Below, piece by piece: positions 2,799 through 8,715 of a DNA stretch of 12,057 nt; the first letter of the stretch is position 1, and every line of letters starts with the position of its first letter. Position numbers and translations under genes: made by a program. The notes beneath the pieces were generated by a model. The model was not told the origin of the DNA. It worked only from the letters and a program-made list of their open reading frames with translations, and ran no database searches. The stretch lies in IMG/VR virus record IMGVR_UViG_2558860274_000002; one strand, 5' to 3'. This DNA is from a virus. Its lineage: Duplodnaviria; Heunggongvirae; Uroviricota; Caudoviricetes.

Positions 2799-2820
2799 GC
2801 CGCCTGTGGGCGGCTTTTTT
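2799..2820 (+). terminator. Rho-independent terminator downstream of Q
   Basis: GCCGCC (2799-2804), loop TGTG, GGCGGC (2809-2814), then a run of six T (2815-2820), starting 6 nt after the Q stop codon. Confidence 0.65.
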
Positions 2821-2962
2821 ACACCCCGCCATCACGCCCTCACACGCTCACCACCGCACAAAACAGCCCGCATACACACCAACGCCCCGGCGAACAATCT
2901 AAACGCCATCACAACGCGCTCAGACGCTGAAAAAATAAAATCAGCACCACCGCCAGCGCGCA

Positions 2963-2981
2963 GTGCTTTCCCCACCTCGCC
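2963..2981 (-). other. cos site: 19-nt P2/P4-type cohesive-end sequence (terminase cleavage site)
   Basis: Minus strand reads GGCGAGGTGGGGAAAGCAC, one mismatch from the P2/P4 cohesive end as I recall it (GGCGAGGCGGGGAAAGCAC). The flanking C/A-rich sequence 2821-2962 also resembles my recollection of the P2/P4 left-end sequence. Position between Q and the right-end genes is as expected. Confidence 0.7.
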
Positions 2982-3004
2982 CGCCCGCTTCGTGGGGCGG
3001 TTTT
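2981..3004 (+). terminator. Terminator-like GC hairpin abutting cos
   Basis: CCGCCC (2981-2986), 8-nt loop, GGGCGG (2995-3000), followed by TTTT (3001-3004). Function not established; may be part of the terminase recognition region instead. Confidence 0.3.
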
Positions 3005-3138
3005 AATGCAGGTGTAAATTCAGTCTAAATACATACCTGTCGGGTCATCAAGCTTGTGCGCTCACTCAATAAAACACATGCAAATAAATGCATATAGACA
3101 TGCGCTACCAACTTGCACTAGCCATGTACATCAGGTAA

Positions 3139-4971
3139 TTAACAACGTAATTCTGTACAATTAGCCCATTCTTCAGAAAAAACAGCATCTGAAGATTTTG
3201 GCCCTGGCCTTGCTTGATTAATTGAAATTCTTACAGGCAAATTAAATGCAGAACCAAATGCAACAGCATCACCTCTTGGTAAACCTGATATTTGTTTTAA
3301 GATTTGTTCATTACCGCTTTCCATTGCATATCTGAGAGCCTGTAAATCTCTTTCATTAGTCAAACGTAACGAAAACCAGTTTGAACACATTGCCAAAACA
3401 GTAGGAGAAAGCTCTGAGGGTCGCTGAGTACTGACAATTAAAGAGCATTTGAATTTCCTACCTTCTTTAGCAAGTCGTTCATATGCTTTAATCTGTGAGT
3501 CAATTTCAGCATAAGGGTCACGCAGGTAATGATGCGCTTCTTCCAACAAAAGTACCGTAGGATACGAACGTTCCTGCCCACGTCTAAATAGTATCTCAGC
3601 AAACATCTCCAACAATGCACTAAGTAACATTGGAGCATGATCTTGTGCCAAATTTTTCATATTAACTATATGAACATTCCAATCATTTTCTTGTCCTTTT
3701 TCCTTACCAAAGAAGTAATCAACTTCATCACTCATAGCTTTATCCCAATGCGTTCCACCATCTGCTAGCTCACCCCCTCCATTTAAATTAACAATAGATT
3801 TAAATCTTATATCCTCTGCAAGTTGTTGTATGATTTTTACCAATGGCAACACGTTACTAAAACCAAACGCGTCACGTTTACTTCCATTAGAACGGTCAGC
3901 AGCTACACATCCAAATTCAGCAACCAAAGTCGCTAAACTTTTAAACGGCGGCCATACATTCGTTCTTTTAAGACGTCTACGCCTTAATAAATCCAACCAC
4001 TCAGCCAATTTACTTTGATTTGTGTCACGACAATCATCATACAAAAGAAAAGTTTCACCATCATTTTTTTCCAAGTAAATATTACGGCTTTTAAAATGAG
4101 TCCGATTAATTGCACTTAATGCATTTCTTAATGCGGGCAATTGTGTTTTATCACTTGGTCTTAATAATTTAATTAACCCAGCAAAACCTAATGCCTGATA
4201 TGGTATCTTTTTATAACAATAATACTCTTCACTATATAGCTCACCCTTTTGCTGATTTTTTTCCAAACTATCAACATTTGGGGATTCCCCTAGAATAGTG
4301 TGCTTTACATTTGGAATACCTGTAAAAGCTTGCGCGTATTCACCATTTATGTCAAAAATAACTATTCTTGAGTTAGGGTATTTTTCAGAAACCTTCCTCG
4401 TTAACAAAGCATTGAAATTTGATTTACCATATCCTGTACTACCAAGAACGGCTAAGTGTCGCGACAATAATTTATCAACACTTGCAAATATCTTAACGGT
4501 TTTAGTTCGAGAATCCACACCTAATTCAACCGCTTTTGGGAGTTCTTCTTTATCAATACTATAAATGATGTTCAAAAAATCTGAAGTCAAAGGAACAGCA
4601 GAAGAACCCAATGCAGGTAAGCGCCAATCTTCTGATATAAAAACATAACCATTTAACTCCCTTTTCACAAAGCCAATTGCATAGGCGATAATTTGTCTTA
4701 GAGGTATATCAGCTAAATCAGATGTGCCTACATTTGCCTTATGCGCTTTATCCGCTTCAACAAATGCCATATCTGTCACTCTTGCGACAACTAATATATT
4801 ACCTGCATCGAACCCAATAAGATCTCCTGGTTGCGTTACTGAGCTCACCCCCTTTCTATGCGATGCTAATCTGCCTTGCAACCCCTCATGCAGGTTTATC
4901 CTAATTCTTTCCCCTTCTAATCCTACAACGTATCCAATAGCCGAGATTTCAGTAAGTTTAAAAAGGGACAT
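3139..4971 (-). CDS. herA: HerA-like (FtsK/HerA superfamily) ATPase, 610 aa; second gene of a SIR2-HerA-type defence operon
   Basis: Walker A LAVLGSTGYGKSN, Walker B TVLLLEEAHHYL, and the HerA/FtsK-typical LIVSTQRPSEL motif. Start taken at the internal Met (MSLFKLTEIS..., ATG at 4971) because AGGAGA lies 5 nt upstream and the ATG sits just inside the 3' end of the sir2-like gene. The ORF track's start at 5022 has no such support. AT-rich relative to phage core genes. Confidence 0.85.
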   Translation of the reverse strand: MSLFKLTEISAIGYVVGLEGERIRINLHEGLQGRLASHRKGVSSVTQPGDLIGFDAGNILVVARVTDMAFVEADKAHKANVGTSDLADIPLRQIIAYAIGFVKRELNGYVFISEDWRLPALGSSAVPLTSDFLNIIYSIDKEELPKAVELGVDSRTKTVKIFASVDKLLSRHLAVLGSTGYGKSNFNALLTRKVSEKYPNSRIVIFDINGEYAQAFTGIPNVKHTILGESPNVDSLEKNQQKGELYSEEYYCYKKIPYQALGFAGLIKLLRPSDKTQLPALRNALSAINRTHFKSRNIYLEKNDGETFLLYDDCRDTNQSKLAEWLDLLRRRRLKRTNVWPPFKSLATLVAEFGCVAADRSNGSKRDAFGFSNVLPLVKIIQQLAEDIRFKSIVNLNGGGELADGGTHWDKAMSDEVDYFFGKEKGQENDWNVHIVNMKNLAQDHAPMLLSALLEMFAEILFRRGQERSYPTVLLLEEAHHYLRDPYAEIDSQIKAYERLAKEGRKFKCSLIVSTQRPSELSPTVLAMCSNWFSLRLTNERDLQALRYAMESGNEQILKQISGLPRGDAVAFGSAFNLPVRISINQARPGPKSSDAVFSEEWANCTELRC

Positions 4972-6205
4972 TACCTTCTCCTTTAGAAAGATTAGCAATT
5001 GCTTCAACCAACTCATCAACAATATTATCTCGTGGAAAGAGCACAGGGTATGGTAGATGTTCTACGAAACTATTAAAATATGCCTTGCTTCCTCCCCCAA
5101 CTACAGTTACTTGATTGAAAGCCATATTTTTTAAAGTAACAATAGCTTTCTCAGCTTCCGAACCGCCACCCTTACTTACTTTGGCAATTGCTTCTTTCAA
5201 TTCAGGATAATATATAACAACATGGAAAGATGGATTCAGTAACGCGCCTAATATTATTCTATTTATATGATAATCACCGAAACCAAACCCATTTATGAAC
5301 AACGCTGTTTGAGGTTTCGAAATAAACTCCCCAAAACGTCTAAACATCTCTCCATAAACGAAGCCGATTGTATGGCTATATTTATTCGCCCCTGGATAAA
5401 TCAAATGTTGACCGCGATAAAAGTCATCTTTATTGATTATGTCATTAATATATTCATCATATGCTTGAGATGCACTAACTTCGTTAACAGTCAAGCTATC
5501 ATTTTGATACCACGTAAGTGAGCCATGTAATTTATAGAGATACGCATGATAATGTCCGAATCTTGCTTCGCCCTTCGCATTTACATTTCTGAAAGCCAAA
5601 TCAAAATTCTGGGGATAAAACTGCCGTGTATGTAGCCCAGAAAAACCATTAAACAACTGTATTCCTAAATCTTCTGCAGCCCACTCTAAGGCCAAATCAT
5701 AATTTGTTGTGAAAATTGCCGGAGCCGACTGACCGGGCTGTCTATTTGAAATTAATTTTGAAATTAACTCTTTGTGATATTTAAACGCATCTTTTTTACC
5801 CTGATTTTTCTCTCTAAACTGCTCTCCTGTTAATAATGCAGCCTTCGTAACCTCTTTATATAATGAACTTAATATCTTCCTGAATTCCTCCTCTTCATCT
5901 TCACATCGTCTAGTTTTAGCTACAGAAAGAAATTTAGTTGCTTCATCTATCAAAAGTTCAACATTGACCAAATTGTTATCAGAATCAATTTGCGAAACCA
6001 GAAGATATTTATCAATAAGTGCTCCCAAAAGCTCAGGGTAGTTTTGCTTAAACGATTTCCATACATCTTTCATCGTTTTCCCACCACAACCGACAGAAGC
6101 ACCAGCACCTAACAGAACGCCAACATTATCTAATTGACACAAGGAATAAACGTGAGAACGAAAATCATCCTCATTTAACTTGTTACCACCTTGATAAATC
6201 GACAT
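4958..6205 (-). CDS. sir2: SIR2-like domain protein (predicted NAD+-consuming effector), about 415 aa; first gene of the SIR2-HerA-type operon
   Basis: Rossmann-type glycine motif VLLGAGASVGCGG, then IFTTNYDLALEWA (Asn/Asp motif typical of prokaryotic defence SIR2 domains) and YLYKLHGSLTW (catalytic His-Gly). About 180 aa C-terminal extension. Start placed at the second ATG (6205) because AAGGA lies 5 nt upstream; the first ATG (6211) is an alternative. AT-rich. Confidence 0.85.
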   Translation of the reverse strand: MSIYQGGNKLNEDDFRSHVYSLCQLDNVGVLLGAGASVGCGGKTMKDVWKSFKQNYPELLGALIDKYLLVSQIDSDNNLVNVELLIDEATKFLSVAKTRRCEDEEEEFRKILSSLYKEVTKAALLTGEQFREKNQGKKDAFKYHKELISKLISNRQPGQSAPAIFTTNYDLALEWAAEDLGIQLFNGFSGLHTRQFYPQNFDLAFRNVNAKGEARFGHYHAYLYKLHGSLTWYQNDSLTVNEVSASQAYDEYINDIINKDDFYRGQHLIYPGANKYSHTIGFVYGEMFRRFGEFISKPQTALFINGFGFGDYHINRIILGALLNPSFHVVIYYPELKEAIAKVSKGGGSEAEKAIVTLKNMAFNQVTVVGGGSKAYFNSFVEHLPYPVLFPRDNIVDELVEAIANLSKGEGNVPF

Positions 6206-6211
6206 AAACAT

Positions 6212-6326
6212 CCTTTTACAAATTTTAAAATTAGCTAAGTTACTACATTAAAAATCAAATATTAGAAAAAGTCATTACTCATAATCACACAATAGATTCA
6301 TAGGGTTAGCATAGTCACAATAGCTA
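6212..6326 (-). promoter_or_regulatory. Probable promoter region of the SIR2-HerA operon
   Basis: 115-nt very AT-rich spacer between the A stop and the sir2 start. One candidate on the minus strand: -35 TTGATT (6258..6253), 17-nt spacer, -10 GCTAAT (6235..6230). Not validated. Confidence 0.3.
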
Positions 6327-8450
6327 TCATTGTTGATTATCAGCATCCTGTACATTGAAAATCGCGGTTGACTCGCCAACTATGCCTGCTCGTGTGTCTC
6401 CTTTGTTTGTACATTTACGTGATGCTTCTATTTTCAATGCCAGATTAAGCACTTTCAAGACCTCCGGGTCATTCCATTCGATAACACCGTCATCTACCAG
6501 ATTAAGCACTGCTGCGGCGTGCTCAGAAGGTGTGGGAGCCGGTAACGAAGTATCGCCACAGGTGAGCTTTCCACAGTTATTGACAGGACTCCGAGGCGCG
6601 GCGATGCCGCTTTTTAAAGTCAAAGGCTCAACGACCGGAACTTTCGACACAATGCGCCAGTCCGTCGTTCTGGTGATATGAATATGACGCGCGCCGAGAT
6701 GCGGCGCGTAAATGCCGACCACTCTCTCGACTTCTTCCTCGTACTCGTTAACTTCATCCGACGGACTACGGGCGACCCTGACAGTCTGACAATCGCGCGG
6801 GACATTTGCCCCACCCTGCGCGCTGATATACAACGCAAAATCACCACTGTCTGCGGCGGCGCGTGCAGCCTCGACGCGCTCGTCAAACTCATCAGCAATG
6901 CTGACGCCGCGAGGCAATTTGCGTAGTTCACGGTAAGCCCCCATTGTCGGCAGACCAACCGTTTTAAATTGTGGGATGCGCCACGTTGACGCCCATGCGG
7001 TAACAGCCGCAGCAGTGTCTTTCAGCGGTCTGCCGGTATCGTTATCGAGCTGACCATCCAGTGCATAGCCATCGATGTTTTTTGAGATGTATTTCGCGAT
7101 ATACCCCGCAGCACCGCCCTGGTTAAGGTGTTTTGCCTGAAAACGGTTTCGCGCGGCTCCTCTTTCGTCGCCATCCTCTTTGAGCGCATAGCGACGCATG
7201 ATTTCGATAATCTGGTTACGCTGGCGTGGATTACAAAAAAGCATCATATGCCAGTGCGGCGTTCCGTCGTGGTGTGGCTCGACGACACGCAAACCGTAGA
7301 CCTGTAAATCATTATCCTTGAATGCCGTGCGCATCAGGCTCCAGATATGGCAGAGATAACGCTGCGCATCCTTTGGATTAAATGCCTCATCGTTCCAGCC
7401 GTGATTTAGCTGGACGGTTTTACTTTCGCCTTTTCCGACCTGACGTGTCGGGTGATACTTTGACGGCGCGGTAAGCGTGATAAACATCCCCACATCACCC
7501 TCTGCGGCGGCGTAACGCTCAATACCGGCAATGGTGTTCATCAGCTCCATCCGGCGAATTTCAGGATTAGAAATACTGCCCATCACCTTACTGATAAGGT
7601 CGATGCGCTCGCCGGTTTCCCTGTTTTCAAGGTCACACGATTTAAGAAATTCCAGATTTGCCTGGCGGCGTGCACGCACATCACGAATGGCATGTTTACT
7701 GGCATAAGGAGAACGGTCTTTATTCACCTCCCCGACAGCAATCAGTAACGCCTCATGCCAGCGCATACGCTGGCCTTTGAGCTGATGAGTCCACCACTCA
7801 TCGTTAAACAGACGGGCAATGGCAGAATATGCCTGCCTCGTGGTCATCTGTCCTTTACGGTATTTTTTCCAGTAAAGCGGGGAAATATTGAAAGCACGTG
7901 CAGCGCCAGCAACATGACCATAGAGGTGAGCCTGCGCCTCATCCGTAAACAGCGATTCTTTTTCGCCATGTGCATCCACCCAGGCATCGCTGAGTTCCTC
8001 ATACATCATGAAAAGCTGCGATGAGATACGGGCGGCAAACTTTTTCAGCTCCTTGTCATTCATTCCCGGCAGGCGCGCATAGTGGTCACGCTCTGCCAGA
8101 AACAGCAACGACGCGTCGGTGTTCATTTCATGGCGCTGATTCACGCGCTCAATGCGCGGCCATAAACGACGCTGAAAAGTGGATGTGAGGAAATAAAACC
8201 CGTGCACCGGGCTTTTATTGCGCCGGATGTAGTCATAGCGTGAAGTAAACAGCGAGCGCAAAAAGTAAGGCAGGCGGTTAATCGTGGATAAAACACCTTG
8301 CACCTGACGCATCTCGTCACGTGTAAGAGGTCTTTCGCGCCCGACAGCCTCGCGTGGCGCGTTCCATGCATAAGCACCGGTAAACGCCTTACCGGTGCCT
8401 GCGGCAAATGCTGACGGAGGGACAAAACGCCCGGAGGCTTTAACGGCCAT
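6327..8450 (-). CDS. A: Replication initiation endonuclease gpA (rolling-circle HUH-type initiator), 707 aa
   Basis: Start at the internal Met (MAVKASGRFVPPSAFAAG..., ATG at 8450), which I recall as the P2 gpA N-terminus. HUH-type metal-binding motif PHWHMMLF and paired-tyrosine motif GYIAKYISK typical of rolling-circle initiators. My recollection is that P2 gpA is about 761 aa, so the C-terminus here may be shorter or divergent. Confidence 0.9.
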   Translation of the reverse strand: MAVKASGRFVPPSAFAAGTGKAFTGAYAWNAPREAVGRERPLTRDEMRQVQGVLSTINRLPYFLRSLFTSRYDYIRRNKSPVHGFYFLTSTFQRRLWPRIERVNQRHEMNTDASLLFLAERDHYARLPGMNDKELKKFAARISSQLFMMYEELSDAWVDAHGEKESLFTDEAQAHLYGHVAGAARAFNISPLYWKKYRKGQMTTRQAYSAIARLFNDEWWTHQLKGQRMRWHEALLIAVGEVNKDRSPYASKHAIRDVRARRQANLEFLKSCDLENRETGERIDLISKVMGSISNPEIRRMELMNTIAGIERYAAAEGDVGMFITLTAPSKYHPTRQVGKGESKTVQLNHGWNDEAFNPKDAQRYLCHIWSLMRTAFKDNDLQVYGLRVVEPHHDGTPHWHMMLFCNPRQRNQIIEIMRRYALKEDGDERGAARNRFQAKHLNQGGAAGYIAKYISKNIDGYALDGQLDNDTGRPLKDTAAAVTAWASTWRIPQFKTVGLPTMGAYRELRKLPRGVSIADEFDERVEAARAAADSGDFALYISAQGGANVPRDCQTVRVARSPSDEVNEYEEEVERVVGIYAPHLGARHIHITRTTDWRIVSKVPVVEPLTLKSGIAAPRSPVNNCGKLTCGDTSLPAPTPSEHAAAVLNLVDDGVIEWNDPEVLKVLNLALKIEASRKCTNKGDTRAGIVGESTAIFNVQDADNQQ

Positions 8451-8715
8451 ATGAGCCAAAAGCCTCAGAACAACGCTTGCTGAGTTGCTCAACCTGCGCG
8501 TTTAAATCAGCAAAAGACTTTGCGCTTCCGGTCAGAATATCGTGATGCATCAGGCCGGAAACGAGCTGGATTAATTTCGGGTAATAACCAACCACCGCCA
8601 GCCATTCCTGACCGGCGTTTTTACCGCTTTCCGCTCTCTTTTTCTCGTGGAGAATAAACTGAAAGCTGTCACTGGTAACGACATAACGTTCGCCAATTTC
8701 AATACGAATACTCAT
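8440..8715 (-). CDS. P2 orf83-like small protein (function unknown)
   Basis: 91-aa ORF in the orf80-83 position between B and A. Its stop overlaps the A start by 11 nt and its start overlaps the upstream gene's stop. Confidence 0.6.
   Translation of the reverse strand: MSIRIEIGERYVVTSDSFQFILHEKKRAESGKNAGQEWLAVVGYYPKLIQLVSGLMHHDILTGSAKSFADLNAQVEQLSKRCSEAFGSYGR

Follow-up and report, generated by a model that had tools for sequence, protein, structure and literature searches.

Bacteriophage P2 (AF063097 / NC_001895) carries P, Q, cos, cargo, A, orf83 through B, cox, C and int in that order, and the same order is found in the window, by which we mean the whole 12,057-nt stretch of IMG/VR record IMGVR_UViG_2558860274_000002. 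The nick-site sequence inside gene A is identical in the two, as is one copy (copy 2) of the 14-mer that is the subject of this report, and gene A is 98.9% identical to that of P2 at the nucleotide level from position 6455 onward. The window differs from P2 in that gpA ends in an unrelated-looking tail of 43 residues where the P2 protein has its last 96, in that SIR2 and HerA genes stand in place of orf91, tin and old, and in having two copies of the 14-mer instead of one.

The P2-like A-Q (tin/old) defense hotspot was defined between genes by Rousset et al. 2022 (PMC9122126). The window resembles it in carrying a SIR2 and HerA-type cassette between A and the portal gene Q, by cos, and in the swapping of varied cargos on a conserved backbone. 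It departs from the hotspot as described (PMC9122126) in that the exchanged module begins inside A, 43 codons ahead of the stop. More generally, different cargos go with different sequences at the very C-terminal end of gpA.

The ENT4-like lineage comprises Enterobacter phage ENT4 (PV844615) and E. coli prophages, for example that in NZ_AP021944. In the second of two helices predicted near the gpA C-terminus its members have V(V/M)KVLNGALKAGAPR(K/N), the closest match to VLKVLNLALKIEASRK of the window, and several of them are linked to SIR2-HerA relatives. Unlike the window, these phages have a full-length gpA (~760 aa), with Gly instead of Leu encoded at the critical position, and carry their own diverged copy 2 (GGTGTTAAATCTGA); there is therefore no perfect repeat in ENT4-like phages. 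A pair of short, identical direct repeats that lies close to an origin and inside an initiator gene also recalls iterons. The present pair differs from these in comprising two repeats only, in lacking conservation in relatives, and in that one repeat falls outside the conserved ori footprint and the second is specific to one allele. Rolling-circle initiators of the gpA class act at a nick site and not at iterons.

Coordinates and chance expectation of the repeat

Gene A, the rolling-circle replication initiator gene of this P2-like prophage (Pfam PF05840 Phage_GPA, E = 1.9e-124, and the P2 annotation), occupies 6327..8450 on the minus strand; its open reading frame spans 6327-8492, with the probable ATG at 8450. 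The 14-mer CCAGATTAAGCACT has two exact plus-strand occurrences in the window, at 6440-6453 (copy 1) and 6497-6510 (copy 2), near the 3’ end of A. The copies are 57 nt (19 codons) apart and in frame, and each encodes VLNL on the minus strand (...AAAVLNLVDDGVIEWNDPEVLKVLNLALK...), as the first-pass annotation had read from the sequence. Copy 2 (A GTG CTT AAT CTG G) is ordinary P2-type A coding sequence and specifies the VLNL of predicted helix 1; copy 1 specifies that of predicted helix 2, in a variant, cargo-linked A tail. Both segments were placed within helices by single-sequence AlphaFold2 of the C-terminal 114 residues, a low-confidence model (pLDDT 42) that served no other use. No further match with up to 2 mismatches was found on either strand of the whole window.

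Identity between the copies is confined to the 14 nt, and the flanks are unrelated, including the 43 nt after each copy. With 14 nt only in common, tandem duplication is ruled out; the similarity across a repeated unit or its flanks that a local tandem or segmental duplication would bring is absent. The suggestion that a local duplication arose when cargo was exchanged fails on the same 14-nt limit and on the orthology of copy 1 to the helix-2 codons of a second P2-like lineage, here called the donor lineage.

At least two matches to this particular word were found in 0 of 200 shuffles. As a fairer test of chance we scored any exact 14-mer direct repeat at most 100 nt apart, and 15 of 2,000 dinucleotide-preserving shuffles of the window (0.75%) contained one; with the distance unrestricted, 559 of 2,000 did. 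This shuffle null disregards the similar helical peptides that are encoded at both positions in all relatives. Within other lineages, 4-8 of 14 bases are identical between the copy 1 and copy 2 positions. The repeat is unusual, not extreme.

Distribution of copy 1 among relatives

The A genes of other P2-like phages were compared at their 3’ ends, as the first-pass annotation had proposed, and the additional copy is not conserved. Among 122 loci, selected solely on the presence of copy 2 and its flank, both copies occur in 4 (the window included), each of them the SIR2-HerA allele; P2 and the remaining 118 have one. Neither the copy number nor the spacing is thus conserved in the manner of iterons. 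At the copy 1 position P2 reads GGCGCTCAGGGGCG, which is identical at 6 of 14 bases. Copy 1 is also absent from ~900 of the 922 E. coli genomes that match in this region. The variant tail was detected in 20 of 5,426 E. coli genomes and the whole cargo-plus-tail segment likewise in 20; the tail query is nested in the cargo-plus-tail query, and the two 20-genome lists were not compared accession by accession. Copy 1 is confined to one rare, shortened A-tail allele, found in every case with the SIR2-HerA cargo. The single copy in related A genes is what had been expected of an incidental duplication, with the qualification that the repeat marks one particular mosaic junction. A search of IMG/VR and the 5,426 E. 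coli genomes for a 57-nt deletion product between the copies found none.

The nick site and copy 2

As the first-pass annotation had stated, the P2 origin is located within the A coding region: the AF063097 rep_origin at 29892 maps to a nick at ~6592 in the window. The nick falls in a 27-nt ori core, the nick-site block GCGCCTCGGAGTCCTGTCAATAACTGT (6573..6599, minus strand); the extent of ori given here is based on the GenBank annotation together with the conservation profile. In 7 lineages whose A genes are ~80% identical, all codons of the block are identical, with one codon per position, whereas each codon of the 14-mer occurs in 1-4 variants, similar to the background. Along the direction of A transcription, copy 2 comes 82 nt and copy 1 139 nt after the nick site, and neither contains or adjoins it.

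Copy 2 is unchanged in P2 (L001 3045-3058) and in every P2-type A gene examined from E. coli. In diverged lineages the position reads GGTGTTAAATCTGA or similar and is 8-11/14 identical, which is synonymous drift; its Leu codon alone has 4 variants among lineages. Across lineages the 14-mer shows no DNA conservation beyond coding constraint. The idea that gpA itself recognizes the 14-mer is not supported by this comparison, in which copy 2 drifts synonymously and the nick-site block is invariant; identity with ori or a gpA site was rejected for the distance from the nick site and for that drift. A PDB sequence search with gpA returned no matches.

Cargo and the usual hotspot boundary

The cargo island that had been noticed beside A is real, and PADLOC identified its genes as SIR2 (4958..6211, minus strand; E = 5e-190; Pfam SIR2_2) and HerA (3139..5022, minus strand; E = 2.8e-277; Pfam DUF87). 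The true start of HerA is probably downstream of 5022. With Q at 1759-2793, A at 6327-8450 and a P2-like backbone, the locus is a P2-like prophage with defense cargo in the A-Q hotspot. An AT-rich intergenic region (6212..6326, minus strand) aligns with the sequence upstream of SIR2 in loci L125 and L153 and is part of the cargo module; by gapped global alignment, an approximate measure given that the method inflated tail identities, it is 76-77% identical to L125/L153 and 62% to P2.

Most of 114 translated tails are full length and divergent solely in the last 5-25 codons of A, which puts the usual cargo boundary ~270-290 nt beyond copy 1; about 8 of the 114 end or diverge earlier, 5 of them at the helix-2 point. 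Truncated or decayed gpA tails are recurrent in prophages. The position of the repeat is not that of a general A-Q hotspot recombination boundary. A scan for a cos-side copy of the 14-mer with up to 2 mismatches found none, and both copies are on the A side of the cargo; the cargo is not bracketed as it would be by a target-site duplication or att-like flanking repeats. A hotspot recombination target or flanking repeats are ruled out by the lack of copy 1 in most loci, the usual boundary elsewhere and the missing cos-side copy. Of the proposed link between the repeat and the cargo boundary, what stands is that copy 1 is at the junction in the SIR2-HerA allele only; its role as a general hotspot recombination target does not.

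A mosaic junction within gene A

Alignments by megablast to P2 and ~900 E. coli prophages end at 6448-6464, and in P2 and all 72 matching phage records homology is lost at 6448-6455. The mosaic junction was placed at 6455..6462 (minus strand), with P2-type backbone to the right and donor-lineage tail, intergenic region and cargo to the left, from the megablast stop, a codon switch and a GC step. GAG is the last P2-type informative codon and AAA the first donor-type codon, and the GC content drops from ~55% to 40%. Down to ~6459 the window is 97-99% identical to the P2 type; over 6459-6760 the backbone is 97% identical to the P2 type vs 78-81% to the donor type. The collapse of P2-type identity falls within 1-8 nt of copy 1. 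The identity step, the switch in affinity and the linkage to cargo are those of a mosaic junction between two P2-like lineages. Three records whose homology runs 7 nt longer (P24C9, 10W and 11W) have ordinary long tails with VVRVLRGALK. Three rare tail alleles diverge at nearly one point, just past PEVV.

The shortened, decayed gpA tail (6327..6458, minus strand) has 43 codons and a stop vs 96 residues over this stretch in P2. Gapped global identities of the tail were inflated and non-discriminating, and ungapped codon-aligned comparisons were used instead: over the first 48 ungapped nt the tail shares 29-34 positions with donor-type alleles and 21-25 with those of the P2 type. A MAFFT alignment shows that it has deletions of ~16 nt and ~103 nt, that its middle part is frame-shifted and that its stop comes 15 codons before that of L125. 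The end of the tail, the intergenic region and the start of SIR2 can be aligned with L125; the middle of the tail aligns poorly, and its donor-type origin is supported by the two ends and by the adjoining intergenic region and cargo. A search for the source of the tail with the tail peptide alone returned one trivial fragment.

Donor-lineage codons at copy 1 are AAG/AAA GTG CTT AAC/AAT GGN G (KVLNG), so that donor-type alleles (A/G GTG CTT AAC/T GGN G) are identical at 10/14. Where SIR2 relatives (81-88% amino acid identity) have a long-tailed A gene upstream, that gene encodes VVKVLNGALK, with GTG CTT AAY at copy 1. Both parental lineages are present in E. coli. Scans of viral, genome and metagenome collections, in which the SIR2 protein was also traced, found donor-type long tails; they found no intermediate allele with a donor-type KVLNG tail on this cargo (>88% identity) and no KVLNL tail on a donor-type backbone. 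From viral contigs, a degenerate DNA pattern for KVLNLALK retrieved the same allele, three chance matches outside A genes and nothing else.

Origin of the repeat

We consider the repeat probably an incidental by-product, without a function of its own, of a diverged and decaying cargo-linked tail spliced onto a P2-type A. This reading of the sequences builds on the observed coordinates, single copy in relatives, cargo linkage, junction, tail affinity, drift and usual boundary. From its start codon to ~6459, A would be an ordinary E. coli P2-type gene, nick site and copy 2 included, and the last 43 codons, the intergenic region and the cargo would come from a second P2-like lineage that resembles Enterobacter phage ENT4, also occurs in E. 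coli and has an A gene ~80% identical to that of P2. All lineages are predicted to encode two short helices here, ...AAAVLNL... and ...PEVV(R/K)xLxxALK.... The donor helix 2 would natively be VVKVLNGALK (AAG/AAA GTG CTT AAC/AAT GGN GCN) and would bring 10 of the 14 copy 1 bases by ancestry. The imported tail would then have decayed, with ~30% of its positions substituted, two deletions, a stretch out of frame and a premature stop, and a change of the Gly codon to CTG (Leu), together with AAA and AAT states that are seen among donor alleles, would have given the perfect 14-mer. As the scans yielded no intermediate allele, we infer the order of these events, and likewise that the final substitutions were untemplated.

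The observations that sit least easily with drift are that an exact 14-mer repeat so close arises in so few of the shuffles and that every difference from donor alleles within the 14-mer goes toward copy 2, including the 2-3 nt change GGN → CTG; by a rough estimate, the chance that all would point to copy 2 is a few percent. These differences, 2-4 in number and including a multi-base change in a single codon, are what would be expected if a short-patch event templated by copy 2, through misalignment or gene conversion, perfected a 10-12/14 quasi-repeat in one step. Such a patch may have accompanied the recombination or the rolling-circle replication that created the mosaic, with the repeat as its exchange scar. 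Copy 1 lies close to the junction and, as leading-strand synthesis proceeds, 139 nt past the nick site, and a misalignment seed of up to 10 identical bases (AGTGCTTAAT) is possible if the ancestor joined the AAA of L153 with the AAT of L130/L154; any single sampled donor allele offers 8-9. Set against this, the flanks are as diverged from the donor (~30%) as the interior, and no clean patch stands on an unchanged background. With 2-4 substitutions in 14 positions inside the 14-mer vs ~11/34 in the flanks, the density is not higher inside, and a patch signature is therefore unneeded. The helix position tolerates G, D, N, V and L, and CTG is the commonest Leu codon of E. coli, so that an untemplated change is plausible; no sister allele with the before-and-after state was present among the alleles searched. 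We regard one-step templating by copy 2 as unlikely, and it is equally doubtful that copy 1 is a molecular scar, a short tract copied from copy 2 over the quasi-repeat when the module was joined to A just downstream of the rolling-circle origin. If it were, template switching or short-patch repair would be part of cargo exchange at the hotspot.

Two readings that give the sequence a role fared worse. The AT-rich tail, copy 1 included, might be an internal sigma-70 promoter that drives SIR2-HerA in the lysogen, where the early operon is repressed; the tail sequence would be kept for the promoter, and the identity to copy 2 would be coincidental. Cargo genes in a repressed P2 prophage need a promoter of their own, and a weak sigma-70-like site (TTGAAA-17 nt-GAAAAT, 6430..6458, minus strand), whose spacer holds most of copy 1, is the sole promoter-like site of a scan of 6100-6700 and faces the cargo. 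Donor-type alleles lack both hexamers and have GTGAAG and TTAAAAGCT instead. This site, which we take as a lead only, matches 9/12 of the consensus, and one site in 6100-6700 is below the expectation of 1.6 +/- 1.2 from shuffles; the 115-nt intergenic region, conserved with L125 and L153, is a more obvious place for a cargo promoter, and a promoter gives no account of a spacer equal to copy 2. We consider it very improbable. The remaining reading, a functional DNA site that would act as an accessory element in gpA binding or at ori, or else as a recombination target that defines the hotspot boundary, and whose function the second copy would double, appears to us the least probable of all and is largely refuted by the comparative sequence data. 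It could appeal to copy 2, near the nick site and unvarying among the E. coli P2-type A genes examined, and to the three rare tail alleles, all of which diverge close to one point; yet the copy 2 14-mer is conserved at only 8-11/14, with 4 variants of its Leu codon, where the 27-nt nick-site block stays perfect, and copy 1 is missing from 118 of 122 loci and from ~900 of the 922 matching genomes. The conserved coding block TGGAAYGANCCNGANGT and the helix after it, retained in every allele, account for the shared point of divergence, and the distance to the usual cargo boundary, the lack of a cos-side copy and the lack of a recombinant between the copies all speak against a recombination target.

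Extent of the exchanged unit and the ori footprint

The repeat itself is of little weight, beyond being an example of an unusual exact repeat that would have no function and could arise where two similar helix-coding segments are juxtaposed at a mosaic junction. Of wider interest, cargo exchange at the A-Q defense hotspot can take along the 3’ end of the essential gene A. What is exchanged at the hotspot appears to extend into A, and the C-terminal 65-95 residues of gpA appear dispensable. The recurrent decay of gpA tails hints either at dispensability of these last 65-95 residues or, alternatively, at prophages that are replication-defective; in P2, the tail in question is the portion of gpA after ...PEVVRALRGALK.

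The comparison also mapped an ori footprint in the window, made up of the 27-nt nick-site block, which is invariant, and a conserved stem-loop beside it. The latter, a GC-rich GCGGC-NNN-GCCGC at 6598..6610 (no strand assigned), was picked up by a scan for terminator-like structures. Its loop is variable and its stem retained, with one compensatory change (GCGGT..ACCGC) in L142.

The 14-bp repeat in gene A

Relative to P2 the window, a P2-like prophage, is inverted; it contains P (partial), Q (1759-2793), cos, a two-gene cargo, A, orf83 through B, cox, C and int. The gene A ORF (6327-8492, minus strand; Pfam Phage_GPA, E = 1.9e-124) probably starts at the ATG at 8450 (MAVKASGRF...). The cargo, SIR2 (4958-6211; PADLOC E = 5e-190) and HerA (3139-5022; PADLOC E = 2.8e-277), lies in the A-Q hotspot for defence genes of P2-like phages (Rousset et al. 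2022, PMC9122126). None of gene A, its internal origin or the defence hotspot is new. SIR2 and the longest HerA ORF (TTG at 5022) share 65 nt at the SIR2 end (4958-5022); HerA probably starts downstream of 5022, since residue 24 is the first in the PADLOC match.

As the first-pass annotation had stated, CCAGATTAAGCACT occurs exactly at 6440-6453 (copy 1) and 6497-6510 (copy 2), in frame and 57 nt (19 codons) apart, and each copy encodes VLNL (...AAAVLNLVDDGVIEWNDPEVLKVLNLALKIEASRK...). Allowing up to two mismatches, both strands of the window gave no further match. Among 2,000 dinucleotide-preserving shuffles of the window, 15 had an exact 14-mer direct repeat within 100 nt and 559 had one at any distance; the repeat is thus uncommon, though not extremely so.

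Copy 1 marks a rare, mosaic allele of gene A

From 8600 down to 6455 the window is 98.9% identical to P2, and the match ends there. P2 carries copy 2 only, its coding strand reading GGCGCTCAGGGGCG at the copy 1 position (EVVRALRGAL versus EVLKVLNLAL in the window). We compared the A 3' ends of 120 IMG/VR loci, selected solely for copy 2 and its conserved flank, together with P2 and the window; both copies were present in 4 of these 122 loci, each time as the window's allele. No phage record in the collection searched covers the window's variant gpA C-terminus (the tail, 6327-6458). Part of 6212-6520 was matched in 922 of 5,426 complete E. coli genomes, only 20 of which cover the tail, and the whole 2800-6520 segment with SIR2-HerA was also found in 20 E. 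coli genomes, an agreement by number and not by accession. The single copy in relatives and the association with cargo show that copy 1 is specific to one rare, cargo-linked A-tail allele.

SIR2 relatives at 81-88% amino-acid identity lie downstream of full-length A genes in other P2-like phages. One group among these, the donor-type group (L125, L127, L130, L153, L154 and L157), has an A gene 91% identical to that of Enterobacter phage ENT4, and 51 E. coli records carry related alleles at 90-95% identity. Over 48 ungapped nt from GTC, the window matches donor-type alleles at 29-34 positions and P2-type alleles at 21-25. To the right of 6459 its identity is 97% to P2-type sequence and no more than 78-81% to donor-type. 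In a MAFFT alignment the tail end (GAGTCAACCGCGATTTTCAATG with GGGGCAACGATGGTTTTCAATG), the entire intergenic region and the SIR2 start align to the donor-type locus L125, with two deletions (~16 nt and ~103 nt), a frame shift over the middle part and a stop that comes 15 codons before that of L125. GC content falls from ~55% to ~40% at 6440-6460. The identity switch, the alignments and the GC drop indicate that gene A is a mosaic, in which a decayed donor-lineage tail, intergenic region and cargo were joined to a P2-type backbone at ~6455-6462, 1-8 nt from copy 1. The repeat thus lies at a demonstrable mosaic junction.

The same gpA tail is present on a 7-kb contig labelled 'MAG: Bacillota bacterium' (JAEYGZ010000011.1), whose SIR2 is 99% identical to that of the window-type E. 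coli P2-like prophage segment; mis-binning or contamination probably explains the contig. A perfect 10-nt inverted repeat, CATTGAAAAT / ATTTTCAATG (6353-6362 and 6430-6439), brackets most of the tail, its right arm adjoining copy 1; by our estimate, chance alone would give roughly one pair of this kind in 12 kb.

The repeat and the origin of replication

The annotated nick site of the P2 origin (AF063097, record position 29892) maps to ~6592 on the minus strand, inside GCGCCTCGGAGTCCTGTCAA, in agreement with the first-pass annotation, which placed the origin within A. In the direction of A transcription, copy 2 follows the nick site at 82 nt and copy 1 at 139 nt. Among seven lineages with A genes ~80% identical, the 27-nt block GCGCCTCGGAGTCCTGTCAATAACTGT (6573-6599, minus strand; GCG CCT CGG AGT CCT GTC AAT AAC TGT) uses a single codon at each position in 7/7, and so marks out the ori core clearly at the DNA level. 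In contrast, the codons of copy 2 are as variable as background, CTT having four variants, which argues against the proposal that the repeat is a site recognised by A; the copies also lack the defining features of an ori element and of iterons. A GC-rich stem-loop, GCGGC-NNN-GCCGC (6598-6610), lies directly 5' of the nick site and overlaps it. Homologues occupy the matching position in L125, L157 and the Scandinavium locus L142; the loop is ATC, TCT, CTT or ATT by lineage while the stem is retained, in Scandinavium with one compensatory pair change (GCGGT...ACCGC). The stem-loop may belong to the functional origin.

Origin of the perfect repeat

The first-pass annotation had linked the repeat to cargo exchange, and this stands loosely, in that copy 1 is cargo-linked and at the junction; none of the mechanisms offered for it is supported. 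A local or tandem duplication is ruled out since identity between the copies is confined to 14 nt. As flanking repeats or a target-site duplication the copies are misplaced, both being on the A side of the cargo with no copy on the cos side in the window. A recombination target at the hotspot boundary fares no better: most of 114 translated gpA tails are full length, with divergence confined to the part after ...TVNYDGKKFTYPVADEWPGF, ~270-290 nt past copy 1, and no 57-nt deletion product was found in IMG/VR or E. coli genomes. The extreme C-terminus after ...DEWPGF is hypervariable (L002-L121; homologous to P2 30240-30319) and seems to vary with whichever cargo follows, so the hotspot boundary is usually inside the A ORF and not after its stop. 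The rare short tails of L067 and L074 also diverge directly after PEVV, a point best explained by a conserved coding block upstream, as all alleles keep the ...LK helix pattern.

The two copy positions encode the cores of successive predicted helices in every lineage (AlphaFold2 single-sequence model, helices at PSEHAAAVLNLVD and PEVLKVLNLALKIEASR; low confidence, pLDDT 42), and within other lineages 4-8 of 14 bases are already equal between them. The second helix, at the copy 1 position, is VVK(V/I)LNGALKAGAPRK in L125, L127, L130, L153, L154 and L157, and VMKVLNGALKAGAPRN in the related E. coli prophage L170. Its codons are AAG/AAA GTG CTT AAC/AAT GGN GCN TTA AAA in five of the six donor-group alleles, L127 having ATA instead of GTG, and 10 of 14 positions equal E. 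coli copy 2. All copy 1 states except the Leu codon exist among donor alleles combined (AAA in L153; AAT in L130 and L154; GGG in L125 and L157). An ancestor A GTG CTT AAT GGG G would need only GG → CT (Gly → Leu), at a helix position that is variable (G, D, N, V or L); the commonest Leu codon of E. coli is CTG. On either side of the 14-mer the window departs from donor alleles at ~30% of positions, no less than within it, and ordinary sequence change in a weakly constrained tail is therefore sufficient to account for the repeat. We consider the repeat probably incidental, the 14-mer having been completed by such change. The main rival, less likely, is a short patch templated by copy 2 that made copy 1 perfect in one step; no intermediate between a donor-type tail and copy 1 was found in any collection searched.

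The AT-rich tail also creates a weak sigma-70-like site (TTGAAA-17 nt-GAAAAT, 6458 to 6430, minus strand) directed towards SIR2-HerA, with copy 1 in its spacer; a single hit agrees with the 1.6 +/- 1.2 that chance would give. Shortened or decayed gpA tails are recurrent, being found in the window (6327-6458) and in L023, L030, L040, L067, L074, L136 and L132/L156, and in ~7% of the 114 A genes sampled the product stops 43-63 residues after AAAVLNL. Either gpA can do without its last 65-95 residues or the prophages carrying such tails are replication-defective.
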